DNA of 64,000 nt from Burkholderia sp. (GCF_018375725.1 NZ_JAHACR010000001.1:8721-72720), one strand, 5' to 3'. Positions 3,801-31,314 are shown, numbered from the stretch's first letter. A program made the numbers and translations. The notes: generated from the letters alone by a model not told the origin.

Positions 3801-3944
3801 CCAGCAAAAATGCGACAACGACAGCGTCGTGAAGAACTGACTCTGGTGAGCCTGTCGTGCTTCATGCAAGCCCGCGAGGGAGCCCGCCTTGGCCGTTGTC
3901 GAACCCTTCGACTGAATCTCCAGCAGACCGTCAGCCCAGCTCAT
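786..3944 (-). CDS. N6-adenine DNA methyltransferase fused to SNF2-family helicase (1052 aa)
   Basis: N-terminus carries SAM motif VLDNSVGSGRLL and catalytic NPPF (3516-3527). C-terminus carries DEAHFLGN, LTGTPAGN and the helicase-C block GEGTNIPQCSDVLLADKSWSARKESQAIARALR. ATGA start/stop overlap with the upstream gene at 3941-3944. Confidence 0.9.
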   Translation of the reverse strand: MSWADGLLEIQSKGSTTAKAGSLAGLHEARQAHQSQFFTTLSLSHFCWRLVQPLMERIAAREQVRASGIDKISVLDNSVGSGRLLHWATPDIHSLYGVDVDEGCIASLSQAAMNAGFTYEFIHAGMEDVRPRHFDFCLANPPFSINLQSALLSPYECTSYGRFGPNTSTRSDAYALYQALDAAKWVVAILPTTLADEVFMTACGKESHPFKRLVALYDMPLDVFREENATVRVSVAVFDVSVRTDAPNRQRVYKLEEPVATPNLTIAARRQPTLAHLSAEVSQPAITRPVTGDSTVRVCHDGRWIRLKFQCGLTEAMVLNAIYQDRIGAHRPHAEHRYPKGVSYVGQGVLDLQIHLAQPDPMASFWAFISDIGRAGGTPHVDAGLMSYLRRQIRVTARQKAPFRHTVLMPGAGSGKGSATEGTAKKDHLIDPTRWGSPVIKAGTEVTFTEVEHGRYQFEHNGKSFNLPYEDILARFELKQPEAQSEWKEVYSGLAMQFPGLAATWRRQIQELGIDTWLNRGYQIDDLVELAIKRAGVVAWSMALGKARAALAIALLLGGKRALIVLKSALVDEMLIEIGKIKLDPAVWQVIESPEQLQSLRPVNIISVDRLKGPLTSAHPRITYAKKLRRRVGTIIPDEAHFLGNIDTEQSNAVWQVSAKRRFPLTGTPAGNYPRDCHGLLAFAGGDGTAAQPYGYRRYYLDPGLRHSMALAERGIDRVLNTFCDFVWVTREFEDELKGAKREVPRIANLAEYRQMLAPWVKRRVPKEPDVASCVTIPEPTHIQHLIEFDMSHLLHYLVVSEDFSSWYMAGLDEGKRNNLVAILARIKAVEIANNFPQHPKAAKVYAELTRKQRFCIDKLEELVKAGRRPLMFTGYPGNAELVARHLAKRDIDSVVVHGGKTIKRRNAEFESKYRQGDVPVALVTYGSIGEGTNIPQCSDVLLADKSWSARKESQAIARALRGENEWDVQAHHVITEHSIDTYMQQVVSFKADSFNAGFDWGTPTTSDEEFLHLDVIFRRFCRELSELIGVHSHDLRKHLEKETSHVQRIAA

Positions 3945-6884: not shown

Positions 6885-7742
6885 ATGCTGCTCCGCCGGC
6901 TGCTGAACTGGAGTGCAACGACTTCCGGCGTGATGGAGCCGGAGATCTACGGCGAAGCGCGTGAGCGCTACGAGGACATCTGTCTGGAGCTGGGTATCCG
7001 CAATGCACCCACGCTTCGGCTTGCAAAGAAGGTGACCCTTCTGAGCAAGATCGTCATCGGAGACTGGCGCCGGTCGAAATCGATCCGCGCGGCGGCGCGC
7101 AAGACCATCCCGACCGACCATTTCTTTCTGCACGAGCTCGCCCATGCCCTTTGCCTGAAGTATGTTGGCTACCGGGGATACCACGGCGCTCCGTTTCTTG
7201 TGTTGCTCCAACTGCTCTACGAATTCCACTGGGAGGGCGATCTTCCGGATGTGATCGTGGAAACAGTTCGTGAGGATTGGCCTCGATACGTTTCCAGCGA
7301 GGACAAGGGCAAGACGATTTTCGCAGCATGGGAAGCCGTCAATACGATCAAGGCCGATCTTGAGGCGCGGGAGATATTCCGGCCGAGCGCCGACCTGCTC
7401 ACGCACGAAGTCCGCAAATCGTTCCCCGATCAGGTGTCGGTGCTTGACCGGCGGTTCGAGCCGGATGTGTTGCGCGACATGGTTCGGACGCAACGCGACG
7501 GGCTTTTTTCGCTCGCGCTCTGGTCTAGCGGCGCGGCCGCGCTGACGTTCGGTGCGCTATATCACTTTCTCCCGAGTGCCGCGACCGCATGGACGGCTGT
7601 TGGCTTTGGGCTTCTTCTGCTGGCGGTCCTTGCGACGATCGCAGTTTCGGACATGTCGAGGCGCATCGGACGTCTCTGGCATCGCCTGGTCGATCGGTTC
7701 AGCCGGAAGACGATCGACGACATCGGAACGCCGGATATCTAA
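6885..7742 (+). CDS. SprT-like zinc metalloprotease with C-terminal transmembrane anchor
   Basis: HELAH at 7131-7145 followed by YHGAPF (HExxH..HG pattern of SprT-like proteases). Two C-terminal hydrophobic helices: LFSLALWSSGAAALTFGALYHFL and AWTAVGFGLLLLAVLATIAV. Confidence 0.7.
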   Translation: MLLRRLLNWSATTSGVMEPEIYGEARERYEDICLELGIRNAPTLRLAKKVTLLSKIVIGDWRRSKSIRAAARKTIPTDHFFLHELAHALCLKYVGYRGYHGAPFLVLLQLLYEFHWEGDLPDVIVETVREDWPRYVSSEDKGKTIFAAWEAVNTIKADLEAREIFRPSADLLTHEVRKSFPDQVSVLDRRFEPDVLRDMVRTQRDGLFSLALWSSGAAALTFGALYHFLPSAATAWTAVGFGLLLLAVLATIAVSDMSRRIGRLWHRLVDRFSRKTIDDIGTPDI

Positions 7743-7764
7743 TCAACGCTGCGGGGGGGAGTAA

Positions 7765-8439
7765 ATGTCCGTGCTGAACGGCTACGGCGATAAACGAAAT
7801 CCGACGATCAGCAATCACGGCGTGGATATCGCCGCGCAACGTGCTGACGATCTGGACGGCATGGCGCTTGATCACCTGCGGTCGATCAAGGATCAGGCTC
7901 GTGCACTGGATGTGGCGAGCGCCTCGGGTGGGCAGGCCATTCGTATGGCGCTGGTAGGTGCCGACGTGCTCGCCCTCGATATCGACGACTACTCGGAGGC
8001 GTTCCATACCGCGGCGAGTTCTGCCGGCGTGGAACGGCGATGTGGGTTCGTGCAGCAGGACATCACGGAATATGACGTCGCTGAGAAGCTTGGGCGCTTC
8101 GACGTGATCGTGTGTCAGCGGATGATCCACTACGTCCCGTACGGTGTCGCGATCGACATCGTGCGGACTTTCAAGGAGGCGCTGAAGCCCGGGGGCCGGC
8201 TCTATCTTTCCGCATCCGGTCTGCACAGCGAGCTCGGAACCGACTACCCGGGTGCGCAGCAGCCCATCGACCAGCGGTACGAACTGCTGTCGGACGCGAT
8301 GGTCGAGAAGCACGCGATTATGGGGCTTGTCTGCCTCTACAGCCAGGATGAACTGGTCTCGTTGCTCGAGACGGCGGGTATGCGTGTCGAGCAGTCGTTC
8401 ACGTCGGCGTTCGGAAACGTCAAGGCGGTGGCGCGATGA
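7765..8439 (+). CDS. class I SAM-dependent methyltransferase
   Basis: GGGGGGAG RBS. Motif I LDVASASGGQAIRMAL, acidic loop VLALDID, post-motif PGGRLYLS. Confidence 0.85.
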   Translation: MSVLNGYGDKRNPTISNHGVDIAAQRADDLDGMALDHLRSIKDQARALDVASASGGQAIRMALVGADVLALDIDDYSEAFHTAASSAGVERRCGFVQQDITEYDVAEKLGRFDVIVCQRMIHYVPYGVAIDIVRTFKEALKPGGRLYLSASGLHSELGTDYPGAQQPIDQRYELLSDAMVEKHAIMGLVCLYSQDELVSLLETAGMRVEQSFTSAFGNVKAVAR

Positions 8440-9809
8440 AGCACACGCTCGTCGCTGGATCGGCGCATCTCGATATCCTCGCCCGCCCGCTGCAGAATAC
8501 CGGTTATCGGGATCGAATCGGGTCGGTGCAGCTGGCGGCGGGCGGCACGGCCTGCAACGTCGCATTCAACCTGCGCAAGCTGGGTCGACCAGTCCGCCTG
8601 ATGACTGCATGGGGTACTTCGCCGATCGATCGCATGTTGGCCAGTCACATCGAGTCGATGGGCGTCGATCTGATGGTGGACGAATGCGCTGGGATGGGTG
8701 TGGCAGCGTTTGCCGCCCAACTGACCCCGGAGGGGGATCTGGAATCGGCCGTGTCCGCGATGTGGGTGGACAAGCACACGTTTTCGCCGCTGCGCATCGC
8801 ACAGGCAGTGGCCGGCACCGACCTCATCATCGTGGAAGCGAACCTGAATTCCGAGACGATGTGCGCGATCGCAAAGGCGGGGCGCGAGGCGGGTTGCCCG
8901 GTCTTTGCGATGGCCGTGTCGGAGGACAAGGTCGAGCGCCTGATTCCGGCGCTCCCGCTGCTGACTGCCCTGTTCGCCAACGGCGTGGAGTGCGAAGCCC
9001 TGATGGAAAAGATGGGTGCCGCGGATCCGTCGGATATCGCCGAGTCGAGTGGCGTGCGGCTGATCGTGACACGCGGCGAGCGGGGTGCTGTGGTGTACGG
9101 GCCAGATGGCTCGCGTATGAAGATTCAGCCGCCGATCCTGCAGGATATGAAGACGCTGCTCGGCGTCGGCGACGCATTTTCGGTCGGAATAATCGACGGG
9201 GTTGTCAGGCACGGGAAGTCGTATGCGGAGGCCGCAGAGCACGCCCACGAACTGGTCAAGGAAATCGCCTGCCGAGATACGTGCAATGCGCTCTCCCTGC
9301 ACACGCTGAGCGACATGGTCGACGCGCTTGACGGCACGGCGCGATACGACGCACTTACCGGTCTAATGCAGCGAGCCGCATTCGAGCGGGAGTACAAGCG
9401 ACTGGAAGAAGCAGGTGAGCACGCGCTGCTCCTGATCGATTGCGACCACTTCAAGCAGGTCAATGACAAGCATGGTCACGATGTGGGCGACAGCGTCCTT
9501 AGGGGCGTGGCCGGCATCATCGCCGGGAGCATCCGCAAGGGGGATATACCGTGCCGATGGGGCGGTGACGAGTTCGCTCTCGTGCTGCCGCCTGGCTCGG
9601 ATGCACAAGTCGTGGCAGAGCGGATCCGGATCTCCGTCGCAGAAGCGCGGCTGTATGGCGTAACGCTATCGGTGGGAGTTGCGTTCGCGGAACCCGGCGA
9701 GAAACTCGAATCCGTCTTGAAGCGAGCCGATGCAGCGATGTACCGCGCCAAACGCAAGGGCCGGGATGCGGTCGTGTTCGAGGCCGAGGCGTTGAGCAAC
9801 GAGTCGTGA
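8436..9809 (+). CDS. PfkB-family (ribokinase-like) kinase fused to GGDEF diguanylate-cyclase domain
   Basis: ATGA overlap with the methyltransferase stop. The N-terminal domain has AAGGTACNVAFNL and LGVGDAFSVGII (PfkB signatures). The C-terminal domain has intact GGDEF (9561-9575), I-site RKGD (9534-9545) and DxxHFKxxND. Confidence 0.9.
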   Translation: MKHTLVAGSAHLDILARPLQNTGYRDRIGSVQLAAGGTACNVAFNLRKLGRPVRLMTAWGTSPIDRMLASHIESMGVDLMVDECAGMGVAAFAAQLTPEGDLESAVSAMWVDKHTFSPLRIAQAVAGTDLIIVEANLNSETMCAIAKAGREAGCPVFAMAVSEDKVERLIPALPLLTALFANGVECEALMEKMGAADPSDIAESSGVRLIVTRGERGAVVYGPDGSRMKIQPPILQDMKTLLGVGDAFSVGIIDGVVRHGKSYAEAAEHAHELVKEIACRDTCNALSLHTLSDMVDALDGTARYDALTGLMQRAAFEREYKRLEEAGEHALLLIDCDHFKQVNDKHGHDVGDSVLRGVAGIIAGSIRKGDIPCRWGGDEFALVLPPGSDAQVVAERIRISVAEARLYGVTLSVGVAFAEPGEKLESVLKRADAAMYRAKRKGRDAVVFEAEALSNES

Positions 9810-9854
9810 TTCAAATTTCCCCGGCGAGTTCGGTACCGGAATCAGGGCATTGAA

Positions 9855-10592
9855 ATGGATGTGTCGTCCATCATGGAAGCAACACTACTTGGACTGCTGA
9901 CAGGCGGATGCAGCGTGATGCTTGCGGGTTGGTTGCCGCGCTTTCTCGAAGCACACTACAGCCTCGACGAGGACCGGATCGGCGCAGGCTTGGGCGAGTT
10001 CATGAGCGCGCTCGCCGGCATGAAGCCGGCCAGCAATGAGGTCGCGTGGATCACGGGCAGCGTGGTGTGCTTGCTCTTGGGTGCGGCCGGCTTCTATGCT
10101 GAGTTGGAGTGGGGCACGACGAGCCAGGCTGGCGCGTTCATCCTCTTCGCCGGTGCGCTGGCTTCGGCTGCGCTTATCGACCTCGAGCACGAGATTATTC
10201 CCGACATTCTCATCATCCCGTTGCTCTGGGCCGGCCTGATCTTCAACGCGTCGGGGATGTTCGCGCCATTGTCGTCGGCCGTGTTCGGCGCGGCGGCGGG
10301 CTATTGCTCAATGTGGTTGCTGAACTTCCTCTTCCAGATCGTCGCTGGGCAATCCGGCATGTACGGCGGGGACTTCAAGATGTTCGCGGCAATCGGCGCG
10401 TGGGCAGGACTTAGTGCGCTGGTGCCGACGTTGATCATTGCCCTCGTTGTTTTTGCGCTCACGGCCGGCGTGCGAGTGATGACGAAAAGCACAAACAGGG
10501 AAACGCCCTTCGGACCATATCTCGCAATTGGCGGCGCGGTTTCGCTGGGCCTCGGAGAAAGTACGAGATTCTTCATTCACCTGTTGCGGTAG
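9855..10592 (+). CDS. A24-family (prepilin peptidase / TadV-CpaA-like) membrane aspartic protease
   Basis: Polytopic membrane protein. First catalytic Asp context is LIDLEHEIIPD and the second is GGDFKMFAAIGAW. It has no N-terminal methyltransferase or Cys region. Confidence 0.8.
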   Translation: MDVSSIMEATLLGLLTGGCSVMLAGWLPRFLEAHYSLDEDRIGAGLGEFMSALAGMKPASNEVAWITGSVVCLLLGAAGFYAELEWGTTSQAGAFILFAGALASAALIDLEHEIIPDILIIPLLWAGLIFNASGMFAPLSSAVFGAAAGYCSMWLLNFLFQIVAGQSGMYGGDFKMFAAIGAWAGLSALVPTLIIALVVFALTAGVRVMTKSTNRETPFGPYLAIGGAVSLGLGESTRFFIHLLR

Positions 10593-10769
10593 CACTCTTA
10601 CCTCTTCTAGAATGACACCAGTTTCTCGACTGGAAGCAGTACTTTCCACGTCGAAAATCGCAGCTGGGCGTAACTAGCCACGACGGTCATCCGTCATTTT
10701 CCAACCCGGGTGGGATCCTTGATCCCGCAGCGGGGCATGGATTCTGCCATCGTTTCATCAGGAGAATCC

Positions 10770-12557
10770 ATGCAAGTCAGTACCGAAATTTCGCAGTCTC
10801 AATCCCTTCCGCCGGTGATCGCTGGCGACGTTCAGTCGTCGTCGAGTATCGTGGAGGTCGTGGAACGGGATGTATGTGCGCCCGAGTATGAGAATCTGGT
10901 GGTTCGTATTGGAGACGTACGTGTGGTCTACAACCCGCGGACGTACTTCGAGCCGAAGGCAATGGCTGAGCTGGCCGCCTCGATGCGGGCTCAGGGCCTC
11001 TTGCAACCACTCCTGGTTCGCAAGATGGACGATCACTACGAGCTCATCGCCGGCGAAAGACGTTTGCGCGCGGCGCACGAGGTGTACGGGCCGGACGGCG
11101 TCATTCCTGTCCTCTCCCGGTACATGACCGATGAGCAAGCGGCTCTAGCGGCCGTCACCGAGAACATCCAGCGGGAGGACATGTCCCCCACTGAAGAATC
11201 GGCAGGCGCGCTGCAGGCGATGGCCCTCTACGGGGGCGATCGCGACGAGGTCGCGCGACGCATCGGCTGGTCGCGTTCGAAGCTGGATAGCCGCCTGGCT
11301 CTCCAGAACTGCATTCCTGCGGTCCAGACTGCGTTGAACGAGCGAAAGATCATGCTCGGGCACGCGGAGCTCCTGGCGGCCGTGGTGAAGAAGGTTCAGG
11401 CGGAGATCCTGCCGATGATCATCGAGCGCAACATCTCGGTGGCTGATCTGAAGGCAGAAATCGCGGCGCAAGCCTTGCGTCTCGACACCGCCCGCTTCGA
11501 CAAGACCGAGTGCCTCACCTGTCATCACAACTCGTCCAATCAGCGAACGCTGTTCGCTGAAGCGATCGACGACGCGCGATGCACGCAGAAATCGTGCTTC
11601 GACGCGAAGAACGACGCGCTGATCGAGTCGGTGAAGAAGAGCCTCGAGGGGCAATACCAGCGCATCCAGGTGGTGCGCCCGGGGGACAACCTCACGGTTA
11701 TTGCTCTGAAGCCGGATGGCGATACGGGCGTTGGCGCCGAACAAGCAGAGGCCTGCAAGGGCTGCGCGAACTTCGGCGTGCTCATATCGGCCACGCCGGG
11801 CAAGGTCGGCCTTTCCTATCCGAACTACTGCATGGATGTCGCGTGCAACAAGGAGAAGAACGCTGCCTATCTGGCCACGATCAATCCGCCGGCAGCAAAG
11901 GCGGGTTCGACCGGTGGGTCGGGTAAGAAGGCGGCGGGTCAGCCAGCCAGCAAGGGTTCGTCTGCCGGCAAGTCGGCGTCGAGCGCCAAGCCTGCCGTTT
12001 CCGCCGAGTCCAATCGCGTGAAGGAGTATCGCGAGAAGACGTGGCGTGAAGTGGTTCGCACGGTGATGGTTCGTAGTCCGGCCAAGACCGAACTGCTGAT
12101 CATCACGTTGGCGTCGATGGGGCTGTTGCGCCACATCGACACCACGGCGCTGGCCGAGCAGATCGAGAAGGCTGGCGGGAAGCCGGTTGGCGCCGGTATC
12201 GGTCTGTTTGACAGTTTGACAGTCGTGGCCGGCCTCGAGGAAACGCCGCGAGGCCGTATCCTCGATCTCGTCGCATCGTCGGTCGTGGGCGATATCCAGA
12301 TGCGGGATGTCAAGGATCTCGCGACGTTCCTCGATGTCGATCTTGCCGCTCATTGGCAAGTCTGCTCGGGTCTGCTGGATGTCATGACCAAAGCCGAAAT
12401 CGAGGCCCTGTGTCAGGAAATCGGTCTGAAGGAATTCCTCGGCAAACAGTTCGCCAAGATCATGTCGGGCAAGCGCGACGAGATGATCAAGGGGCTGCTC
12501 AAGGCTGAAGGATTCGAGTTCCGCGGCAGGATTCCTGCCGTCATGCTGCTGAAGTAA
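10770..12557 (+). CDS. ParB-like nuclease-domain protein (PRTRC-type ParB homologue)
   Basis: AGGAGA RBS precedes ATG 10770. ParB N-domain LLQPLLVRKMDDHYELIAGERRLRAA. About 595 aa with a low-complexity Lys/Ala/Gly linker. Confidence 0.9.
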   Translation: MQVSTEISQSQSLPPVIAGDVQSSSSIVEVVERDVCAPEYENLVVRIGDVRVVYNPRTYFEPKAMAELAASMRAQGLLQPLLVRKMDDHYELIAGERRLRAAHEVYGPDGVIPVLSRYMTDEQAALAAVTENIQREDMSPTEESAGALQAMALYGGDRDEVARRIGWSRSKLDSRLALQNCIPAVQTALNERKIMLGHAELLAAVVKKVQAEILPMIIERNISVADLKAEIAAQALRLDTARFDKTECLTCHHNSSNQRTLFAEAIDDARCTQKSCFDAKNDALIESVKKSLEGQYQRIQVVRPGDNLTVIALKPDGDTGVGAEQAEACKGCANFGVLISATPGKVGLSYPNYCMDVACNKEKNAAYLATINPPAAKAGSTGGSGKKAAGQPASKGSSAGKSASSAKPAVSAESNRVKEYREKTWREVVRTVMVRSPAKTELLIITLASMGLLRHIDTTALAEQIEKAGGKPVGAGIGLFDSLTVVAGLEETPRGRILDLVASSVVGDIQMRDVKDLATFLDVDLAAHWQVCSGLLDVMTKAEIEALCQEIGLKEFLGKQFAKIMSGKRDEMIKGLLKAEGFEFRGRIPAVMLLK

Positions 12558-12669
12558 GCAGCCGTCGTCTGTTCGCTGGCCGTCGTTCTGGTGGCCAGTA
12601 TCCATCTTTCCGTTCGCGGGTGCTGTCCCTTGCGGGGCAGGCATTCGCATTTTCATTCCAGGAGTTCTT

Positions 12670-13152
12670 ATGTCCACGCTGTTCAAGCAGTTGCACGCTC
12701 TCGTCTGTCAATCGGACGGCGGTCTCATGATGTCGATCGTTGCAGGCAAGGCTGGGAAGATGACGGTAGCAGTCATGCCGAAGTCGAACCAGAAGGAAGC
12801 GAGTGAAAGTGGGCTTCTGACGCCGCTTGCGCTGACCGGCACGCCGGAAGAGCTTGATGCGGAGTTCGTTCGCTGTCTGGGCGAGTTCACTGGCCAGCGT
12901 CAGTCGCTCGTCGATCAGCTCGCGGCGACCACCGCGGCGCTGGAGGCAGCGAAGGGCAAGGCAGTGGCCAAGGGTAAGCCTGCTGGCAAACCGGCGGCGC
13001 TGCCGGCGCCGACAGCGCAAGCTGGTGTCACGTCTGCGTCCGATCTGATCGACGCGGACGAGGAGTCGGATGAACCGGGTAATGCTGCCACCGAGGCAGC
13101 TCAATCGGGTTCGACCGGCAGTCTGTTCGGTAACGCGGCGCTCGTGGGCTAA
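12670..13152 (+). CDS. PRTRC system protein E-like
   Basis: Position (first gene after parB) and size match the PRTRC gene order. Acidic, Ala-rich C-terminus. AGGAG RBS. Confidence 0.65.
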   Translation: MSTLFKQLHALVCQSDGGLMMSIVAGKAGKMTVAVMPKSNQKEASESGLLTPLALTGTPEELDAEFVRCLGEFTGQRQSLVDQLAATTAALEAAKGKAVAKGKPAGKPAALPAPTAQAGVTSASDLIDADEESDEPGNAATEAAQSGSTGSLFGNAALVG

Positions 13153-13164
13153 GGGGAGACGGAC

Positions 13165-13377
13165 ATGGCATTGGAAGTCTCTCTGATCAAGCGTGTCTTC
13201 ATGTACCACGGCACGCAGTTCGCAGATCCTGGTCCGTCGTTGTCGATCCAGCAGGTTCAGGATGTGCTTTCCATGGCACACCCGGACATTGCAACGGCTG
13301 AGTTCGAGCAGAGCGAGGTCCGTCAGGATGGCACCGTCGTCTACAACGTCCGCCGCAAGGTGGGTCAAAAGGGCTGA
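13165..13377 (+). CDS. ubiquitin-like (beta-grasp) small protein, PRTRC protein C-like
   Basis: 70 aa, ends ...RRKVGQKG-stop with a C-terminal Gly. Sits in a cassette with E1, E2-like and JAB genes. Confidence 0.7.
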   Translation: MALEVSLIKRVFMYHGTQFADPGPSLSIQQVQDVLSMAHPDIATAEFEQSEVRQDGTVVYNVRRKVGQKG

Positions 13378-13379
13378 CC

Positions 13380-13607
13380 ATGAAACCGGTGATGTTTGAC
13401 GCCTGGCTTGCCAGGGCAAACGGCTCATCGGTGGAAGTGGTCAAGGGGGCATCGGGTTCGGAAGATCCCGGTGCCCCTACGCCTATCCCACTTGAGGAGG
13501 TCTACGGATGCGCATGCATTCTGAAATCCATGATCGATCGATCGCAGCAGGATCAGCCGGCCGGCCGATTAAGTCTGATGCCGTTGGATCTGCCCATTCT
13601 TGGATGA
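13380..13607 (+). CDS. small hypothetical protein (75 aa), translationally coupled
   Basis: ATG lies 2 nt after the Ubl stop. Its TGA overlaps the next ATG (ATGA at 13604-13607). Not a named PRTRC component. Confidence 0.4.
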   Translation: MKPVMFDAWLARANGSSVEVVKGASGSEDPGAPTPIPLEEVYGCACILKSMIDRSQQDQPAGRLSLMPLDLPILG

Positions 13608-14650
13608 GGTTGCCGGTGCTCGATCGGGATATCCCGGTCGAGCAAAACAGCCAGCGAAGTCTTTGCTGGCTGGAGGCCGCCAAATCCCTGCATGCGTGCG
13701 GACTGGTCGTCCCATCGGACATCGAAGGTTGGAACTCGCCGGGCAAGGTAGTCGAATCGGCGCTGTCCCGATGGTTTGCGAAACGGACGGACGGGGTAGC
13801 GGCGCTTGAGCTCGATATCTGCTTTGCTTCGGCCACCAACATGGTCGATGAGGGCTCGATGGAAGAGCCTGAAGAGGACGAGCTCAACGATCTTGGCGTA
13901 TGGGTCGAAGTGTCTCGTGACCAGCCGAATTTCCGGAGTCTGCGACGCGGATTTCTGGAGTTGGAGGGGATCGCGGAAGGCCTCGGTATTGCCGCGACCA
14001 CGATTCTTTCGCTGGCTGGGCACATGATCGGCTTTACCTTCGATCATGATTACGTGACCCATTCTGCAGGGTTGCACATCTACGGCTGGGAAGATTGCTG
14101 GCCGGATGGCACCTACGATCCGTCCGAGTTCGGACCGGAAAACGAGGATGGTTCCAGCGAGTACTTCGCCTATACAAGGCCGGCATTCGACCGGGACTGC
14201 CCGCGACGGGAACTGCTTCGGCACCCACCGATTCGCGACATGGAGAAGTTCATTCTTGCCGTCGCGAAGCACAACGCGGAGATGGCGCCAGTACTGGAGG
14301 ACGTGGTTCGACTCGTGAAGGCGAGGCGGCATCGCGATGCGATGTGGCCCACGCTGAGCGGGACTGACTACAACTCCATGATTCCGGCGTTTTCGCTCGC
14401 CTGGGATGCACCGGGCGAGGCAAAAGATGGGAAAGAGGACAACATTTACCGTGTCTGGGACGACTACGCCAACATGCTCCGCAACGGGGGTGAAGGGTGG
14501 GCGTACGGCCTCGGCTCGGAAGTGTTGGCCTGTCGAACCCCGGAGCTTCTACGGGGGACTTTGAAACGTTGGGATAGTCGTCTTCGACTGCTGAGGGCGA
14601 CTGATCGCCTGCTGCATTCGATGACGGATCCCGTTATCTACGGTGGGTGA
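13604..14650 (+). CDS. PRTRC system protein F-like
   Basis: 348 aa from the coupled ATG 13604 (the ORF track opens at 13508). Position in the cassette matches; no catalytic motif recognised. Confidence 0.65.
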   Translation: MRLPVLDRDIPVEQNSQRSLCWLEAAKSLHACGLVVPSDIEGWNSPGKVVESALSRWFAKRTDGVAALELDICFASATNMVDEGSMEEPEEDELNDLGVWVEVSRDQPNFRSLRRGFLELEGIAEGLGIAATTILSLAGHMIGFTFDHDYVTHSAGLHIYGWEDCWPDGTYDPSEFGPENEDGSSEYFAYTRPAFDRDCPRRELLRHPPIRDMEKFILAVAKHNAEMAPVLEDVVRLVKARRHRDAMWPTLSGTDYNSMIPAFSLAWDAPGEAKDGKEDNIYRVWDDYANMLRNGGEGWAYGLGSEVLACRTPELLRGTLKRWDSRLRLLRATDRLLHSMTDPVIYGG

Positions 14651-14651
14651 C

Positions 14652-15392
14652 ATGATCAATACGCAAGTTGTTGGTTCCGGGTCGTCGTTGAAGCTGGAAC
14701 ACGCCATCCTCCTTTACTCACGTTCCGGGCATCCGGGAAGTGCTTCGGGGAATGGCTTTGTCACGATCAATCCTGTCCGGATTGAGAAGGGAAACGCAGT
14801 GATCGGTCCCGGGCAGCCGGCAAGCCGGGCGGCACTGGTCGACGCACTTGATCGGCTTGCAGAACGGGAGCAGACACGAGCGCTGTTTCACCCGCGCCTG
14901 CTTGGCCGTGGGGCGGACTATGCAGTCTGGTACGTCCCGCCCGGAAAGCGCCACCTTGCCTTCAATCACCCCTCCGTGGGGGGAAAGAAGGCTGGGACGT
15001 GCGCGTTACCGGGCCTGGTGTTCTTCCTCGTACGCGACGATTGGTACGTGTTCGCATACCGGGGAAAGCGACGTCCGTCCGCGCGGACGCCGCTCTACCG
15101 CACGCCGTTTTACAACGTGTGGCAGGAGGGGCGGATCTGCGTCGGTAACATCGATCTCCCGAAGCAGGGGACATCGGCGCCGCTGGAGCAATGGGAGGAC
15201 GCGTTTTTCGGAACGTGGTTCACACACCCGAACATTCCGGAGGCGCAGCTCCTGCGCAAGGGGGAGAACTGCGGGAAGCTGTGGAAGGCACTCCTTGCGG
15301 GAAAGCATGAGACGTTTCCGTCGGGGTTTCTGGCACGGACGGGCATGCGACTCGAGGACGCGTTCGGGAAGCTGGTTGGAGGGGGTGTCTGA
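14652..15392 (+). CDS. E2 (UBC)-like protein, PRTRC protein B-like
   Basis: FYNVWQEGRICVGNIDLP resembles the UBC HPN...G.IC.L loop. The candidate catalytic Cys codon is at 15138-15140. TGATG overlap with the next gene. Confidence 0.7.
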   Translation: MINTQVVGSGSSLKLEHAILLYSRSGHPGSASGNGFVTINPVRIEKGNAVIGPGQPASRAALVDALDRLAEREQTRALFHPRLLGRGADYAVWYVPPGKRHLAFNHPSVGGKKAGTCALPGLVFFLVRDDWYVFAYRGKRRPSARTPLYRTPFYNVWQEGRICVGNIDLPKQGTSAPLEQWEDAFFGTWFTHPNIPEAQLLRKGENCGKLWKALLAGKHETFPSGFLARTGMRLEDAFGKLVGGGV

Positions 15393-16030
15393 TGGATCAC
15401 CGTGACATGTTTCTCCAAACCACATTCCCGACGATCCCGGTGCCGCGGTTTGGCCCGCTCGAGGAGCTGGCGTCGAACGGACACCGGTTCCTTGTCGGAA
15501 GCAACGGCGTGGCGCTGGAAGTCCGCCGGCCATGGCTGTACATGCGGCAGATCGCGATGAAGAACGAAAGCGGTCTTGCGCTCCCGTATGGCCGTATGTC
15601 GGAGGTGTTCGAACTCCGCTGTGGCCCGATTCCACGAGAGTTGCTCTTGGAGTTTGCCAGCCAGGCGAAGGCAGGGGGTGAGATCGAAACGGCCGCGTGG
15701 ATCACGTGGCGTGAGAGCACCCGTTCCTTCGTCTTTCGACGACTCAGTGAGCGGACTGCGTCCGCGCACTCCGTAGTTGTGGACCGGCCGGAACTGGACG
15801 CGGACGAGCACCTGGTTGTGGACCTCCATAGCCACGGTCACGCGGACGCGTTTTTCAGTCCAACGGACAACGAAGACGATCAGGGGGAGGTCAAATTCTC
15901 CGTGGTTGTCGGCTCTTGTCACCGTGATCGGCCGGAGGCGTTTGACGTCGTCGCGCGGCTTTGTGCGCTGGGATTGATAGTCCCTGCGAATGAGGCGTTC
16001 TCCTTGAAGGAGGTGCAGCATGCAGCGTGA
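15392..16030 (+). CDS. JAB/JAMM metalloisopeptidase, PRTRC protein A-like
   Basis: Complete JAMM motif H-S-H-x7-S-x2-D (HSHGHADAFFSPTD, 15827-15868). Upstream Glu in GGEIETAAW. Confidence 0.85.
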   Translation: MDHRDMFLQTTFPTIPVPRFGPLEELASNGHRFLVGSNGVALEVRRPWLYMRQIAMKNESGLALPYGRMSEVFELRCGPIPRELLLEFASQAKAGGEIETAAWITWRESTRSFVFRRLSERTASAHSVVVDRPELDADEHLVVDLHSHGHADAFFSPTDNEDDQGEVKFSVVVGSCHRDRPEAFDVVARLCALGLIVPANEAFSLKEVQHAA

Positions 16031-16775
16031 GCACATGGTCCATTCTTCGCTTCTGAAGAGCGAGCCCCATATCGTGGTGATTGGTGCCGGCGGTAATGGC
16101 AGTGCGATGCTGGCTTCGCTTGCGACGCTCAATCATGCGATGCAGGAACTCGGTCACCCGGGTTTGCGCGTGACGGCCGTCGACGGCGACACTGTATCCC
16201 CTTCCAACGTTGGGCGGCAGGGGTTCTATCCGTGTGATGTGGGCCAGTTCAAAACCGATGTTCTGATCCAGCGGATCAACATGGGGTTTGGCACGCGATG
16301 GTCTTCCATGCCAACCATGTTCACCGGGAATGATTCCGGGGAGCTGGACGCTGACATGGTGATTTCCTGTGTGGATTCGCGCCGCGCAAGAAGTGTTATC
16401 GCCAAGTCCTTTCAGCAAGGGTACTACGTGGATCTGGGCAACAACGCGGCGACTGGGCAGGTGGTCATCGGGGAGTTCGGAGCGCGTCGTGGGAACGACT
16501 TTCGTCTGCCCCATGCCGTCGATCTCTTTCCTGAGATTGCCGATACCTCGCTTCCAGAGGACGATCAGCCATCGTGTTCGATGGCTGAAGCGCTCGAGCG
16601 GCAAAACCTGTTCATCAACCGGATGATCGCGGGTTGGGCGGCCGAGTTGCTATGGCAGATGTTTCGTAACGGCAAGTTGAACTTCCACGGCAATTTCGTC
16701 AATCTGGTCTCGGGGCGTGTTGCGCCGATCCCGGTCGACGAAGAGGTGTGGTCGAGGATGGGATACAAAGCCTGA
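16020..16775 (+). CDS. ThiF/MoeB/E1-like adenylyltransferase (PRTRC ThiF family)
   Basis: Rossmann loop VVIGAGGNGSAM and DGDTVSPSNVGRQ. GGAGG RBS. 11-nt overlap with the JAB gene. Confidence 0.85.
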   Translation: MQREHMVHSSLLKSEPHIVVIGAGGNGSAMLASLATLNHAMQELGHPGLRVTAVDGDTVSPSNVGRQGFYPCDVGQFKTDVLIQRINMGFGTRWSSMPTMFTGNDSGELDADMVISCVDSRRARSVIAKSFQQGYYVDLGNNAATGQVVIGEFGARRGNDFRLPHAVDLFPEIADTSLPEDDQPSCSMAEALERQNLFINRMIAGWAAELLWQMFRNGKLNFHGNFVNLVSGRVAPIPVDEEVWSRMGYKA

Positions 16776-16798
16776 CGAGAGAAGCATCACGCAGTTCC

Positions 16799-16842
16799 GA
16801 AGCCCCGGCCCTTCCATTACGGAAGAGCCGGGGCTTTTTTTT
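16799..16842 (+). terminator. rho-independent terminator of the PRTRC operon
   Basis: Stem AGCCCCGGC (16801-16809) / GCCGGGGCT (16827-16835) with inner stem CTTCC/GGAAG, followed by a T8 run. Confidence 0.75.
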
Positions 16843-17055
16843 GGTTCTTCGGGGATTTCCGGGGAGGCTGCATGTGGACAGGCTGTAGTTCGGTGCAGCC
16901 GAATAGCCGTCGATGAACAGGTGAGGATGAGCGGCGCCCTTTCGGGGCGACTGACTAACGGCAGCCCGAGTCGGTCGGCCACGCCGATCGCGATGCGGCC
17001 GGCGTGTCGGCGTGGTACCGTCGCCAAGTGAGAAACACACCGACGACCCACTCGA

Positions 17056-18087
17056 ATGGAAACACCAGAAGACGCAAAAGCCGCCGGCGAAAGGCTGAGA
17101 GAGATACTCCTCCACGTCGCTATGGCGTACGAGGATGCCGCCTCCATGCTTGATGCTGGATCCGCGCGGGAGAGGCTCGCCGCCCACGTCGAACAGACGA
17201 TCGAATTCGTGCGCGAGAAGATCCTGCCAACGTATAGCGGGAAAAAACTGCTGTTGTACGACGAGGGACGGGCGGTTCGCAGCTTCGATTTCGAGTGGAC
17301 GCGCCTATGGGAAAAGGCGATCACCCTTTATTTGAGAAGCGCCGGGAGACTTTCCGGGCCTGACGTCGAAACGTATCTCTCAGATCCGGCACATGCGAGC
17401 ATCTTGAAGGAATTGCAGAACGACTTGCGAGCGCAAATCGAGACCTTCACAGTTCCGCTGCTGGAGGACTTCGAGACACCCGGCGACGACTTTCTCCTTT
17501 ATACCTATACGCGGATGGTCGCTACCGACGAGAAGACCACGATTGACGATATCGCCGGTGCGGGATTGACGCCCCCTGAACGAATCGAAGCATTTTTCGG
17601 GATGTTCGGGCTTCTCATCGAGGCCACGCGCGCCAAACAGCAAGGCGCCATGGACCGCGCTTACTCATTCCTCCTTGATGCCAGTCACATGATTGGCATG
17701 CATGAGAGCGCGCGGTATGTAATGAAGTTCTCGCCGGAAGTAGCGAAAAAACGTCGGGCGCAGCTCAATTCCGAGAAAAGTCGGGAACAAGTCAAGAAGG
17801 CCAAGCTCCGCGTGTGCGAACTGTTCAATGAGCTTCGCCCGACCAGCGCAGACGGCAAGCCTCAACGCTGGAAGAAGGCGAATGACGCGGCCCACGCGGT
17901 ATGGGGCGCGCTTGAAAAAGAGGCCTACGCCGATGGCGGGCGAGCCCCGGACATCAGTGACCGCACCGTCCTGTCGCTGTGCCAGAAGCTGCACAAACGT
18001 GACAAGAACGGTGGGGTGTTTCATATCCGGGTCGAAGTAGTAGAGCGGTTGCCGGACGGTACGGAGGGCAAAGTGGTGAGCGATTAG
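17056..18087 (+). CDS. hypothetical protein (343 aa)
   Basis: Long ORF with ordinary amino-acid composition; no motif recognised. Confidence 0.6.
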   Translation: METPEDAKAAGERLREILLHVAMAYEDAASMLDAGSARERLAAHVEQTIEFVREKILPTYSGKKLLLYDEGRAVRSFDFEWTRLWEKAITLYLRSAGRLSGPDVETYLSDPAHASILKELQNDLRAQIETFTVPLLEDFETPGDDFLLYTYTRMVATDEKTTIDDIAGAGLTPPERIEAFFGMFGLLIEATRAKQQGAMDRAYSFLLDASHMIGMHESARYVMKFSPEVAKKRRAQLNSEKSREQVKKAKLRVCELFNELRPTSADGKPQRWKKANDAAHAVWGALEKEAYADGGRAPDISDRTVLSLCQKLHKRDKNGGVFHIRVEVVERLPDGTEGKVVSD

Positions 18088-18437
18088 TCGCTCTCGCCAC
18101 CGCAAGGCACGTCCGAGATATCGAGGTACCAGTTGCCCACGGTGACGCCGCCGACCTGCCTGTCCGGCTCGTACTGCGCCGGGTTCAAGGTGGCATGGAA
18201 GCCGTGGCGCGTCATCGTGTTGAGGGCGCGGCGATCGGGTTCGCCGTCCGCCGTGCGAGCGTACTCGTAAACGACGGCCGCGGCGTGGCGAACCAGCTGC
18301 GCGTGCTCCGCGGACAGATACGGCAAGACGCTGTCGCCGTTGATCGGGTCGCCCTCATTGTCGGTGTAGGGGCGCGGGATATGGGCGAGCGGGGCGAGGG
18401 CGTCAATGACGTCTCGAATGGTAGGGCGGTCAAACAT
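18084..18437 (-). CDS. hypothetical protein (117 aa)
   Basis: GGGAG RBS precedes ATG 18437. Convergent with the upstream gene, with a 4-nt stop overlap. Confidence 0.55.
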   Translation of the reverse strand: MFDRPTIRDVIDALAPLAHIPRPYTDNEGDPINGDSVLPYLSAEHAQLVRHAAAVVYEYARTADGEPDRRALNTMTRHGFHATLNPAQYEPDRQVGGVTVGNWYLDISDVPCGGESD

Positions 18438-18684
18438 GACTGGCTCCCGTGTTGGGTTGAGGGTTGAACACGGAAGAGATAATGTCGACCCCGGGCCCAA
18501 ATTGCGATCGGTTTGCTAGCAGAATGACTTTTTGGCTGCTGCGTCGGGCAACTTGCTGCCTCACCAATGAGGCGCCGAGCGCGTTTCGCGCATGGGCTCC
18601 TGCCGCGTGCACTCGATCTCCGAAGTGGTAGCGAGGTTGTTTCGTCGAACGTATACTCGCGAGCTTGGGAGGAAGAGGTCAAAT

Positions 18685-19122
18685 ATGCGGCGCATTGCAG
18701 TATGTCAGTCGAGCGTTCATGGACGCGGGGTATTCGCCCTGCGTGATATCCCGTCAGGCGAACGGATCATCGAATACAAGGGGCGGGTCATGTCGTGGCG
18801 GTCCGCGATCGCGGGACACCAGAAGCTGGCGTGCGAGGATGGTCACACGTTCTTTTTCGGGCTGACCGATGGCCGGGTCATCGATGGCGGCGCGGGCGGC
18901 AACAGCGCCCGATGGATCAATCATGCCTGCACGCCGAATTGCATCGCCGAGGAAGATGAGGGCCGCGTGTTCATCTTCGCGAGCCATGCGATCCGAGCTG
19001 GCGACGAGATATCGATCGACTATCAGTTGAGCGTCGACGGCCGGCATACAGCCGCGGTACGGGCCACCTATGCCTGCCGCTGCCAGTCCCTGCAATGCCG
19101 CGGGACCATGCTGGCGCGATAG
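18685..19122 (+). CDS. SET-domain protein (putative protein lysine methyltransferase)
   Basis: GGAAGAGG RBS. HGRGVFALRDIPSGERIIEY, NSARWINHACTPNC (NHxCxPN), GDEISIDY (ELxxDY-like) and a post-SET Cys cluster CRCQSLQCRG. Confidence 0.85.
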   Translation: MRRIAVCQSSVHGRGVFALRDIPSGERIIEYKGRVMSWRSAIAGHQKLACEDGHTFFFGLTDGRVIDGGAGGNSARWINHACTPNCIAEEDEGRVFIFASHAIRAGDEISIDYQLSVDGRHTAAVRATYACRCQSLQCRGTMLAR

Positions 19123-19128: not shown

Positions 19129-20448
19129 TCAGGCCGCCGTCCGCTCGATGCGGGGAGGAAGTGCCGGCATCTCGCGTGTCCTGGTCAGATCCCATTCCCA
19201 AATTTCGACGCCATTCTGCCGGTAGATGTGCTGCTTTTCACGCTTGCGGACGTCGTATTCCTCGCGACCCTCCACGCCGTACACTTCCATGTAGCAGCGA
19301 CGCGATGCCGTGTCGTAAAGGATGAAGTCGGCCAAAACCTTCCCGTCCAGCGAGTCGGTGCCGGTCTCGATCTTGACCGGCTTGGAGAAATCGCGGTTCG
19401 CCATCACGAGCGCATCGGCAACGACTTCCTCATAGGACGAGTCGACCGGAATGAAGCGGCTCGACACGCGCATCAATCCAGCATCGAGTAGCTGGAGATG
19501 ACCGCGTGGCGTGCCCTCGACGTGGAATATGCCGATCACATGGCCGTGCTCCGCGTTCAGTGTGTTGAGCACCCGGCCGAACCTGCGCTGCAGACGCTGC
19601 ATGAGGGACGCCTTGCAGTAGACGGGTTGGGCGATGTGGCCAAGCTGAATCTGGTAACTGTCGAACTGTGACTCTTTCACGCCGCGTAGTGGGGCGATGA
19701 TGAACAGCGTCTCGCGCACTGCTGACGCAGCTTTTCCCGCGGCAATCCGGTTCTGAGCGTCGATAAACTGACGCGCGCTCGTGAAGAGTGGCTCCTGACG
19801 CGCGGTGAACTCGGCCTTGTTCCTGTCGGCGGCTGCCGGCGTGTAACGAGGCGGGATGTAGAGCACGTCGGCGAGAGGTCGCTTTCCGATCTGGCCGTCC
19901 TCAACCTTGACCATGAGCTCGTACCGGACACGGCCCCAATCGCGGTTCCATCCCGCTCTCCAGCGGTGCAGCCCGGTCTCGTTCCAGAGATACTGCAGCA
20001 TGGCGAGCAGCGTAGCGCCGCGCGTCGATTCAGATGGACGGGGCGATGCTTCGATCGCGTCCTTCTTTCGGACAACGGTGTCGACCTTCAGGGACACGGA
20101 AAACTGCGGCGTGATCCGGAATGTCCCGTCAGCGCCTTCCTCGAAGCACGACTTGCTCTCGGATGATTTACCGGACTCGTCCTCCGGCTCCTTGAAGAAC
20201 GGACAGTCAATATCGTGCGCCTCTCCGCCTTCTGGCCAGCCGGCGAGGAAGAATGCAGCCGCGGTGCCGGCGTGGGACTTCCGGCGGATGACAAGTCGCT
20301 GGGGAGTGGAGGAATTGCAGAGACACCAGGCGTGGCCGGGTTCGACCCGCGCCTGCTCAAAATCGCGGGAATAGGACGCGGGTGCCTCGCGCACAGCCGA
20401 AAGTCGGACGCGCCGCGAGGCAATGCGAACATCGGGATCTAAGGACAT
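19129..20448 (-). CDS. hypothetical protein (439 aa), possibly DUF1173-like
   Basis: N-terminal Cys/His cluster (GHAWCLCNSS ... HDIDCPFF). The C-terminus ADFILYD..CYMEVYG..EEYDVRKREKQ is loosely reminiscent of a PD-(D/E)xK fold. The family call comes from memory only. Confidence 0.7.
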   Translation of the reverse strand: MSLDPDVRIASRRVRLSAVREAPASYSRDFEQARVEPGHAWCLCNSSTPQRLVIRRKSHAGTAAAFFLAGWPEGGEAHDIDCPFFKEPEDESGKSSESKSCFEEGADGTFRITPQFSVSLKVDTVVRKKDAIEASPRPSESTRGATLLAMLQYLWNETGLHRWRAGWNRDWGRVRYELMVKVEDGQIGKRPLADVLYIPPRYTPAAADRNKAEFTARQEPLFTSARQFIDAQNRIAAGKAASAVRETLFIIAPLRGVKESQFDSYQIQLGHIAQPVYCKASLMQRLQRRFGRVLNTLNAEHGHVIGIFHVEGTPRGHLQLLDAGLMRVSSRFIPVDSSYEEVVADALVMANRDFSKPVKIETGTDSLDGKVLADFILYDTASRRCYMEVYGVEGREEYDVRKREKQHIYRQNGVEIWEWDLTRTREMPALPPRIERTAA

Positions 20449-31293: not shown

Positions 31294-31314
31294 GCGCGCG
31301 ACAAGGTACAGATC

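Follow-up and report, generated by a model that had tools for sequence, protein, structure and literature searches.

An Intact PRTRC Cassette of Operon Type 6d from Burkholderia sp. as a Candidate Ubiquitin-Like Conjugation Pathway of Mobile Elements

Gene Content and Organization of the Locus

A stretch of 64,000 nucleotides from Burkholderia sp. (GCF_018375725.1, NZ_JAHACR010000001.1:8721-72720), here called the window, carries a ParB-related, ThiF-related cassette (PRTRC) at positions 10770-16842 of the plus strand. The cassette consists of eight same-strand genes followed by a strong terminator, and all of its open reading frames (ORFs) are intact. Its products belong to families of ubiquitin-like proteins (Ubl), ubiquitin-activating (E1) enzymes, ubiquitin-conjugating (E2)-like proteins, JAB peptidases and ParB proteins. 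The features are listed below, with positions counted from the first nucleotide of the window.

10770..12557, +, PRTRC-type ParB homologue, 595 amino acids (aa) from ATG 10770; TIGR03734, Pfam ParB_N and HTH_ParB
12670..13152, +, PRTRC protein E, 160 aa; TIGR03741, Pfam PRTRC_E
13165..13377, +, PRTRC protein C, ubiquitin-like, 70 aa; TIGR03738, Pfam Prok_Ub
13380..13607, +, conserved small gene belonging to no curated family, 75 aa; positional conservation and codon-position bias
13508 or 13604..14650, +, PRTRC protein F, alpha-helical protein of operon type 6d, 380 or 348 aa; TIGR03742 below cut-off, and position
14652..15392, +, PRTRC protein B, Prok-E2_D family with putative carrier Cys163, 246 aa; TIGR03737
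15392..16030, +, PRTRC protein A, DUF2016 and JAB/JAMM metallopeptidase domain, 212 aa; TIGR03735
16020..16775, +, PRTRC ThiF-family E1-like adenylyltransferase with a single adenylation domain, 251 aa; TIGR03736, Pfam ThiF
16801..16842, +, intrinsic terminator, GC-rich hairpin (16801-16835) followed by eight U; sequence and folding energy

Every coordinate given in a preliminary description of this locus proved correct when re-checked against the sequence, and the junctions named there are exact: ATGA at 13604-13607, TGATG at 15390-15394, and an 11-nt overlap of the genes for A and ThiF at 16020-16030 (ATGCAGCGTGA). The closure of the eight same-strand genes by a strong terminator was likewise supported by both sequence and a folding test. 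For an 85-nt stretch there, the folding energy is -36.8 kcal/mol (z = -3.86), a stability reached by 0 of 200 shuffled sequences. A simple consensus scanner overlooked this terminator because its stem contains bulges.

Translation of ParB most likely starts at ATG 10770, which is preceded by AGGAG, rather than at GTG 10710, from which a protein of 615 aa would result. ParB and E are separated by a 112-nt gap holding a weak hairpin and a T-run (12631-12649). Thus, ParB is not tightly coupled to the other cassette genes, and tight coupling begins at E or C. The cassette as a whole is the distal part of a longer array of genes on the same strand, which starts near 5900.

Family membership was assigned by hidden Markov model (HMM) searches against the curated cut-offs of NCBIfam/TIGRFAM and against Pfam. 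Six curated PRTRC models were matched above their cut-offs by contiguous plus-strand genes: ParB (TIGR03734, 608.9 bits; cut-off 278.6), E (TIGR03741, 83.5 bits; cut-off 37.95; also Pfam PRTRC_E), C (TIGR03738, 56.7 bits; cut-off 45.95; Pfam Prok_Ub with E = 5.7e-15), B (TIGR03737, 204.6 bits; cut-off 131.45; Pfam Prok-E2_D with 149 bits), A (TIGR03735, 211.7 bits; cut-off 101.8; Pfam DUF2016 and Prok-JAB) and ThiF (TIGR03736, 307 bits; cut-off 144.75; Pfam ThiF). The identification of the gene set as a PRTRC cassette in the preliminary description was thereby confirmed, and F scored below its threshold (TIGR03742, 36.0 bits; cut-off 58.4), although the match is full-length (E = 3.6e-9). No match to protein D (TIGR03739) was found among the products of the cassette and the flanking window or among the candidate genes of ten related loci; hence, D is evidently not universal. 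The cassette proteins are 98-100% identical to database entries of the Burkholderia cepacia complex, the value being 98% for B against 'PRTRC system protein B [Burkholderia cepacia complex]' and 100% for F against a database protein. The exact cassette is therefore already known.

For comparison, one genome per species was scanned, which yielded 68 related loci, and conservation was counted over distinct homologues. The order ParB-E-C-F-B-A-ThiF was the commonest (38 of the 68 loci), and 12 more loci showed E-C-F-B-A-ThiF without ParB, so that the latter six genes retain their order in at least 50 loci. In a set of 1.84 billion representatives, 3,224 clusters at 50% identity belong to the B family alone (E up to 1e-3).

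Correspondence with Operon Type 6d

Five types of bacterial E1/E2/JAB operons, 6a-6e, were predicted by Iyer, Burroughs and Aravind in 2006 (PMC1779556). Type 6d was described as encoding, first, a small protein that has a conserved Gly at its C-terminus and is predicted to adopt a beta-grasp fold; second, a fast-evolving helical protein with invariant charged residues; third, an E2-like protein with a conserved Cys, which lacks the His of the HPN motif and has a conserved His downstream; and fourth, a JAB protein whose N-terminal alpha+beta domain has conserved Arg and Trp residues, together with an E1-like protein without a rhodanese domain (PMC1779556). The window cassette corresponds to this description point by point and is operon type 6d. 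It shares with PRTRC/6d (TIGR03734-TIGR03742; PMC1779556) the families and gene order, the terminal Gly of the Ubl, the alpha-helical F, the Cys protein with a downstream His in place of the HPN His, the N-terminal Arg/Trp domain of the JAB protein and the small E1 without rhodanese. It differs in that no protein D was detected, F scored below its cut-off, and the Burkholderia/Ralstonia/Paraburkholderia clade has a gene for an A24 prepilin peptidase directly upstream of ParB.

Accordingly, reading the cassette as a Ubl conjugation toolkit is not new, since it was published in 2006 as operon type 6d. Its authors proposed that 6d carries out Ubl conjugation and deconjugation on mobile elements and serves in addiction or in protection against invaders (PMC1779556). 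The sister types have since been studied, 6a as the MBL system, 6b as Cap2/Cap3 of the CBASS anti-phage systems, 6c as Bil and 6e as Bub (PMC11601596, PMC10557695). Conjugation was shown biochemically for Bil and Bub (PMC11601596, PMC10557695), and 6b was also shown to be a real pathway. For 6d/PRTRC, full-text literature searches returned no experimental study and no assigned function, which makes it the sole such type among 6a-6e. A paper from 2026 explicitly calls the function of PRTRC unstudied, in line with what the preliminary description had stated, and other papers merely list PRTRC on islands, integrative and conjugative elements (ICEs) and plasmids. Most text matches to 'PRTRC' were to the plasmid name pRtrCIAT899.

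Conserved Features of the Ubl, the E1-Like Protein and the JAB Metallopeptidase

The residues to which the preliminary description had assigned catalytic roles are at least 95% conserved over 53-62 distinct homologues, and its individual sequence claims were borne out as well. The 70-aa protein C of the window ends in VGQKG directly followed by the stop codon. All homologues recovered (43 distinct domain sequences) share the domain end VG[TQ]KG, the terminal Gly standing either at the end of the protein or before a variable extension: of 62 homologues, 32 have the stop codon right after the Gly, and the other 30 continue for another 50-152 residues. These extensions are unrelated between clades, and the phage copies are extended as well. 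An invariant Gly with or without an extension is the pattern expected of a modifier whose Gly carboxylate must be free or exposed. The extensions imply an obvious maturation role for the JAB peptidase, as in Bil. The predicted beta-grasp fold of C rests on its membership in Pfam Prok_Ub.

The E1/ThiF assignment was verified by matches to Pfam ThiF and TIGR03736, and the Rossmann loop (G22xGGxGS), D55, R66, K78, D119 and Cys186 in a PSC motif are at least 95% conserved. When the E1 family profile was compared with PDB sequences, the best matches were the active adenylation domain of yeast Uba1 (1.7e-9) and UBA3 (2e-9), followed by ThiF (4e-8), UBA5, MoeB (1e-5) and Cap2 (7e-5). The profile thus appears slightly closer to the eukaryotic Uba1/UBA3 adenylation domains than to ThiF/MoeB.

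Protein A carries the complete JAMM motif reported for positions 15827-15868, which translate to HSHGHADAFFSPTD. The motif residues E99, H146, H148, S156 and D159 are at least 95% conserved, as are R32, R46 and W48. The latter lie in the N-terminal DUF2016 domain that precedes Prok-JAB, and agree with the Arg and Trp residues described for the JAB protein of type 6d. A profile search of the PDB gave no relative of A by sequence.

Protein B: Active-Site Motif and Model

The Cys codon of B at 15138-15140 (TGC) was confirmed and encodes Cys163. This residue is at least 95% conserved in 62 homologues, as are N155, H192 and N194. B agrees with the E2-like protein of type 6d in its conserved Cys163, in FYN (N155) in place of HPN and in the conserved His192 downstream.

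An AlphaFold2 model of B, based on a multiple sequence alignment (MSA) of 20 rows, had a mean pLDDT score (predicted local distance difference test) of 85, with values above 88 across residues 81-240. Its elements follow one another as helix, beta-meander, Cys loop and helices, an order that a much-elaborated UBC topology would allow, without establishing the fold. The comparison of the B family with four human E2s by hhalign gave one local alignment, of B 144-169 with UbcH5 69-91. It covers only the active-site loop, in which N155 coincides with the Asn of HPN and C163 with the catalytic Cys. The B family profile matched nothing among PDB sequences, and no PDB entry lies within sequence reach of B, A or C. 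In a Foldseek search of the predicted viral structures of BFVD, the B model matched only two uncharacterised phage proteins (E = 2.6e-6 and 4.1e-6).

Protein F and a Small Gene between C and F

The assignment of F is supported by its conserved position and by an iterated HMM over 63 loci, and Pfam PF14456 matches distant homologues. Identity between clades is 15-20%. Residues D311, D318 and D319 are invariant, E153 is nearly so, and G158, G160 and W194 are also conserved. F thus fits the rapidly diverging protein with few invariant charged residues described for type 6d, its helicity being taken from a low-confidence model only. Two mutually divergent members of the B family, P0082 and P0159, are full-length natural F-B fusions, which argues that F works physically with B.

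Between C and F lies a 75-aa ORF without a match in NCBIfam, Pfam or PADLOC. In 57 related loci from all clades, and also in phage BgVeeders33, an ORF of 60-75 aa is found at this position. The window ORF begins 2 nt past the Ubl stop codon, its homologues begin within a few nt of it, and the ORF ends at the N-terminal LxLP motif of F. Shared among the homologues are an amphipathic motif at the N-terminus (e.g., SLKERLQA), a helix-like CVxALxxLV in the middle and LPxL as a hydrophobic end. When homologues were compared over the final 100 nt, differences at codon positions 1, 2 and 3 of the small ORF's frame numbered 962, 1200 and 2526, respectively; the pairs compared are non-independent, and representative pairs showed the same trend. 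From this third-position excess, it follows that the small ORF, and not the overlapping frame of F, is the constrained frame there. Going by this comparative pattern, the 75-aa ORF is a real core gene that is uncatalogued. The possibility that it is a split-off equivalent of the C-terminal extension of the Ubl was ruled out, since loci with such an extension also have the small ORF.

Two start codons come into question for F. ATG 13604 overlaps the stop codon of the 75-aa ORF, and ATG 13508 is preceded by GAGGAGG and entails a 100-nt overlap of the two ORFs. The junction of small ORF and F reads xTGA, being ATGA in the window and some clades and CTGA in others; in the CTGA clades, an ATG preceded by GAGGAG lies about 100 nt upstream of the junction. 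ATG 13508 as the sole start, considered because of its GAGGAGG and an N-terminal extension shared with Ralstonia, was dropped. The frame of the extension shows no protein-level constraint, the GAGGAG...ATG coincides with a conserved Glu-Glu...Cys of the small ORF, and clades with the ATGA junction lack the upstream start. Since the window has both signals, sequence does not decide between 13508 and 13604.

Within the 5' end of F, just past the stop codon of the small ORF, a 28-nt near-perfect palindrome was observed (13617-13644; TGCTCGATCGGGATAT/ATATCCCGGTCGAGCA, 94% complementary), which occurs once.

ParB and Protein E

The N-domain of ParB noted in the preliminary description was verified by matches to Pfam ParB_N and HTH_ParB and to TIGR03734. 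The protein consists of this N-domain with GERRLRAA, a helix-turn-helix (HTH), two CxxC...Cx4C modules, a linker rich in Lys, Ala, Gly and Ser, and a conserved C-terminal domain. Residues G95, R98, E131, N132 and R135 and Cys 248, 251, 271, 276, 329, 332, 354 and 359 are at least 95% conserved in 41 homologues. The eight Cys of residues 248-359 (window 11511-11846) form two similar, zinc-ribbon-like CxxC-x19-21-Cx4C modules, and several Lys are conserved in the C-terminal domain. We know of no description of such zinc-ribbon-like modules and a Lys linker for partition ParBs.

TIGR03734 matched in 44 of the 68 loci, where ParB precedes E in the commonest order. It was unmatched in the remaining 24 loci, 12 of which are ordered E-C-F-B-A-ThiF, and ParB is not annotated beside the core in the two phage copies examined. 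The core therefore works without ParB, which is optional, and the wording that the toolkit is coupled to a ParB homologue was too strong. No ParA family was detected among the cassette genes or their neighbours in the window, and positions 9500-18200 hold no repeated parS-like palindromes. The cassette is thus not a ParABS partition system, for which a ParA partner and repeated parS sites are diagnostic.

In 60 distinct homologues, protein E begins with a conserved domain of about 95 aa, after which come a basic patch and an acidic tail of low complexity. No conserved Lys was found among homologues in the folded domain. The tail, a long acidic linker with a hydrophobic-aromatic tip, resembles the acidic C-terminal tip of single-stranded DNA-binding protein (SSB) or of T7 gp2.5. 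It ends in [LIMV][FW] plus at most two residues in 54 of the 60 homologues, and 54 of 60 have at least eight Asp/Glu among the last 45 residues. E of the window ends in ...GSLFGNAALVG, with eight further residues after LF.

Mobile-Element Context

Homologues of B were found on 337 of 72,556 plasmids, 141 of them from Pseudomonas; many of the PRTRC plasmids of this genus are 320-520 kb P. aeruginosa plasmids from clinical samples. Homologues were also found in four distinct phages (five records, Ralstonia phage Dina being present twice). The phages Dina (39 kb; L071, 947-5299) and Burkholderia phage BgVeeders33 (33 kb; L072, 25952-30438) are small temperate phages that carry a ParB-less core of about 5 kb with a Ubl of the precursor type (129 aa). 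Both phages have it in an operon that runs divergently from the region of regulatory or replication genes, a position at which early genes for recombination and host takeover are kept in such phages.

Elements of the Gallionellaceae and Rhodocyclales type carry the cassette co-oriented with genes for SSB, RadC, a PDDEXK nuclease, RecT, ArdC-N, a giant SNF2 helicase and a primase. The raw neighbour counts were 21 loci for RecT, 17 for ArdC-N and 14 for SSB. After dereplication, the commonest neighbours were integrases, S24/HTH repressors and unknown genes, with Peptidase_S24 and HTH_3 as top Pfam families. In ParB-less Paraburkholderia loci, a LexA/CI-like S24 peptidase repressor is encoded upstream (L038, 1014-1778; L039, 6046-6804), which hints at SOS- or induction-linked control. 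PADLOC defence models matched none of the eight proteins beyond marginal hits of the E1.

Upstream of the window cassette, the same-strand array comprises hypothetical genes and genes for an S-adenosylmethionine (SAM) methyltransferase, a PfkB-GGDEF protein and an A24 prepilin peptidase. The last of these (prepilin/type IV leader peptidase) lies directly upstream of ParB at 9855-10592 (+) and correspondingly at 7403-8143 in locus L001 and 5210-5947 in L002. This arrangement is common to the window, Ralstonia insidiosa plasmid pRI-1 and Paraburkholderia humisilvae, and was not found in the other 66 loci. The SAM-dependent methyltransferase gene (7765-8439, +) overlaps by 4 nt the gene for the PfkB-kinase-like/GGDEF fusion (8436-9809, +), which also has a weak Cas10/Cmr2 palm match. 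Further upstream, 786-3944 (-) encodes a 1052-aa protein with an N-terminal methyltransferase and an SNF2 helicase, similar in PADLOC to the DpdE, ZorD and DrmD helicases. Plasmid pRI-1 has a 'helicase-related protein' in the same relative position, the two being likened by position alone.

Straight after the terminator follows a 343-aa gene that matches no family (17056-18087). About 2 kb downstream of the cassette, the gene for a bacterial SET-domain protein of 176 aa (18592-19122, +) adjoins that for a DUF1173 protein (19129-20448, -). A module at 27133-35039 (+) comprises a tyrosine recombinase (27133-28257, +), VgrG of the type VI secretion system (T6SS; 28507-31293), a Tle3 phospholipase effector (31315-33543) and an overlapping 499-aa gene of no assigned family that follows Tle3. 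This stretch may be an island boundary or a T6SS effector module inside the island. The remainder is a mosaic (36509-63218) made up of mobile and resistance genes, with two genes of the TelA family (37576-39470), a Tn3 transposase (40477-43410), an integrase (43494-44807), an IS66 transposase (46061-47653), a MerR-nucleotidyltransferase fusion (47650-48654), a MerA-like HMA/pyridine-nucleotide-disulphide oxidoreductase (53625-55331) and a further integrase (61968-63218).

Discussion

With a probability of roughly 0.5, the intact PRTRC cassette is a compact Ubl conjugation pathway of mobile elements that serves the element early. From residues and homology, we infer the following relay. First, the 251-aa ThiF-type E1 would bind ATP and adenylate the free C-terminal Gly70 of the Ubl C. 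Second, the acyl group would move to the conserved Cys186 of the E1 and then on to Cys163 of B, where Asn155 stands eight residues upstream, as in the HPN...Cys loop of E2s. Third, B and its operon partner F, a candidate substrate adaptor that is fused to B in some genomes, would pass the Ubl to an amine of a target protein. The JAB metallopeptidase A would reverse the modification and would also mature the precursor where the Ubl is extended by 50-152 aa. E, with its acidic tail and aromatic tip, and the 75-aa protein would be further core components, and ParB, with its CTP-type motif, HTH and two zinc-ribbon-like modules, may act as an optional accessory that places the system on DNA. Expressed early, the system would help a plasmid, ICE or temperate phage to establish itself in the host or to take it over, rather than provide host immunity. 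An early function in the service of the element is favoured over host defence by the position of the genes, a weaker basis than that of the relay.

The full conjugation toolkit of the preliminary description stands at the level of families, residues and comparative patterns, and is unproven for folds and chemistry. Several results weigh against the proposed pathway. The C profile gave only chance matches in the PDB, and hhalign of C against Ub, NEDD8, ThiS and MoaD, whose sequences were entered by hand, gave nothing; moreover, the Ubl ends in Lys-Gly, not Gly-Gly. The alignment of the B family with UbcH5 had an E-value of 0.011 and a probability of 3.8%, the E2 sequences again being entered by hand. 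When the B model was compared with the PDB by Foldseek, the best E-value was 0.25, TM scores were at most 0.16, and no E2 was among the matches. To our knowledge, no E3 (ubiquitin ligase), target or conjugate is known for PRTRC. The AlphaFold2 model of F failed (pLDDT of 44.6; MSA of 11 rows), its MSA being shallow because the protein search gave just close relatives and two distant ones. Finally, Prok-E2_C, another family that Pfam labels 'prokaryotic E2', is in fact an inactive adenylation domain (PMC10557695). Because of this precedent and the missing PDB match, 'E2' denotes for B a family label and an active-site motif, not a verified fold. Thus, of the UBC-like 246-aa protein in the preliminary description, the Prok-E2_D membership and the conserved Asn155 and Cys163 stand, and the UBC fold was not confirmed by AlphaFold2 with Foldseek or by hhalign.

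The context of the cassette also speaks in part against an establishment role. The cassette of the window neighbours a prepilin peptidase, a GGDEF protein and hypothetical proteins, and once the loci were dereplicated, just 2-3 of 18 lineages showed the association with recT, ssb and ardC. A general 'leading-region' signature was therefore reduced to lineage-specific support, and the establishment role leans on the two phage genomes and some ICE lineages. Carried further, the proposed pathway could be the mirror image of Bil: incoming plasmids, ICEs or temperate phages would express PRTRC early and tag host proteins, such as defence or DNA-processing factors, and the SSB-like tail of E or ParB would recruit it to entering or replicating DNA. 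We put this forward as a tentative possibility. If it held true, PRTRC would be the first Ubl pathway for counter-defence or host takeover that a bacterial mobile element makes, and at least one of its core components, the 60-75-aa protein between C and F, would be unnamed in databases.

Alternatively, the cassette could be anti-phage or anti-plasmid defence cargo, in which the Ubl is conjugated to an invader protein, as in Bil, or regulates an effector, as in CBASS Cap2/Cap3. All characterised bacterial E1/E2/JAB operon types act in, or are linked to, anti-phage immunity (PMC11601596, PMC10557695). The patchy, mobile-element-borne distribution of PRTRC suits such a role, and the S24 repressor upstream of some ParB-less loci recalls DNA-damage-responsive regulators of defence operons. 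However, none of the eight proteins matched a PADLOC defence model apart from the marginal similarity of the E1 to Cap2, and the neighbours are recombination, single-stranded DNA and anti-restriction genes and integrases, not defence islands. Phages of 33-39 kb spend about 5 kb on the cassette, which in them is no separate moron but part of an operon diverging from the regulatory region. Bub operons are also without demonstrated phage protection, so that homology alone does not predict a defence role. Taken together, a defence function appears unlikely.

The likeness to the defence-associated types is indeed partial. Bil (BilABCD, 6c) shares with PRTRC a separate Ubl, an E2-type Cys protein, a JAB peptidase and an E1, and the absence of an encoded E3 (PMC10557695); some of its Ubls are likewise precursors that need trimming by the JAB peptidase (PMC10557695). 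However, the E1 of Bil is large, with an inactive adenylation, an active adenylation and a mobile Cys domain, whereas that of the window is a single 251-aa adenylation domain. The E2 of Bil belongs to the CEHH family and B to Prok-E2_D, which places the cassette outside Bil. PRTRC adds E, F, the small protein and often ParB, it occurs in a different context, and no defence phenotype is known for it.

With CBASS Cap2/Cap3 (6b) and the 6A-MBL system, PRTRC shares E2-type Cys chemistry and a JAB peptidase, and the E1 adenylation domain is weakly related to theirs (NCBIfam 6A-MBL cap2_3, 8.6e-6), with further weak matches to the PADLOC E1-E2 model (3e-4) and to Cap2 in the PDB (7e-5). Cap2 of type II CBASS is an E2-E1 fusion, whereas E1 and B of the window are encoded by separate genes, and no CD-NTase/cyclase or effector family was found there. 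CBASS has no Ubl because its substrate is the CD-NTase itself. Bub (6e/DUF6527) is likewise a mobile-element-borne Ubl/E1/E2 operon whose biological role is unsettled. It works through Tyr and Ser oxyester intermediates without a catalytic Cys, and has a DUF6527 serine protease (PMC11601596, PMC10557695). In contrast, PRTRC keeps C186 of the E1 and C163 of B and has a JAB peptidase instead; the window cassette gave no match to DUF6527.

An improbable explanation is that the cassette is a ParB-centred maintenance or regulatory module, in which the Ubl is attached to its own ParB, E or F and switches a DNA-bound complex in partition, silencing or a transfer decision. The dedicated ParB clade TIGR03734, found in 44 of the 68 loci and preceding E in 38 of them, could be taken in this sense, as could the conserved CTP-motif residues, the two zinc-ribbon-like modules and the Lys-rich linker of ParB. 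HerB/YfjB shows that orphan ParB-like proteins encoded in the leading regions of plasmids can have roles other than partition (PMC13370423). Like PRTRC ParB, HerB/YfjB is a mobile-element-borne ParB homologue without ParA that has a CTP motif and an HTH (PMC13370423). However, HerB has no Ubl machinery, and PRTRC ParB has its own zinc-ribbon-like modules and C-terminal domain, the two having been compared over the ParB core. The module would, moreover, have to do without ParB in the 24 loci in which it was unmatched and in the two phage copies that have none annotated beside the core. No ParA lies in or next to the cassette, no repeated parS-like palindromes occur nearby, and the folded domain of E has no conserved Lys.

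It is highly improbable that no protein is conjugated at all, with ThiF activating the small protein for sulfur transfer, as for ThiS, MoaD and CysO, or for other C-terminal chemistry, and B being another Cys/His enzyme. PRTRC does share a minimal E1 of ThiF/MoeB size and a small protein with C-terminal Gly with the pairs ThiS-ThiF and MoaD-MoeB and with CysO-Mec+, and a JAB protein with the CysO system. The single-domain E1 of 251 aa also matches ThiF (4e-8) and MoeB (1e-5), and sets of JAB, Ubl and E1 that perform sulfur chemistry exist (Iyer 2006, PMC1779556). The B model matches no E2 structure, and its Cys163...His192-x-Asn194 pattern could suit another thiol enzyme. Nevertheless, no rhodanese, cysteine desulfurase or sulfur-acceptor enzyme was found among the cassette genes or the window neighbours with Pfam/NCBIfam hits, and, judged by sequence, Uba1 and UBA3 are the closest structural relatives of the E1. 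In half of the cases the Ubl is a precursor with a long, variable extension, and the Ubl ends in Lys-Gly, whereas sulfur carriers typically end in Gly-Gly. The cassette lacks sulfur-transfer partners, it has the Cys protein B and F, and its location on mobile elements and phages offers no metabolic rationale.

That the window copy is an inactive remnant is hardly credible. The surrounding 64 kb are highly mosaic, with transposases of Tn3 and IS66, three integrases, a mer gene and a VgrG/Tle3 module of the T6SS. However, each of the eight ORFs is intact and has every conserved catalytic residue, the coupling junctions and the terminator are preserved, and other genomes of the Burkholderia cepacia complex encode the proteins with 98-100% identity.

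The window copy is thus standard and intact and adds nothing unique to the thousands of others; its value lies in an open, tractable question. Four of the operon types (6a, 6b, 6c and 6e) were taken up experimentally in 2023-2024, which changed ideas on the origin of ubiquitination, and 6d is the one left. The comparison added details to its description, namely precursor and mature forms of the Ubl, F-B fusions, an unnamed small gene and a dispensable ParB. The setting of PRTRC differs from that of the sister types, as it is found on mobile-element backbones and in early phage operons, not in defence islands. If PRTRC indeed serves the element that carries it, this would be a new use of ubiquitin-like chemistry in bacteria, and it could bear on the spread of resistance plasmids.

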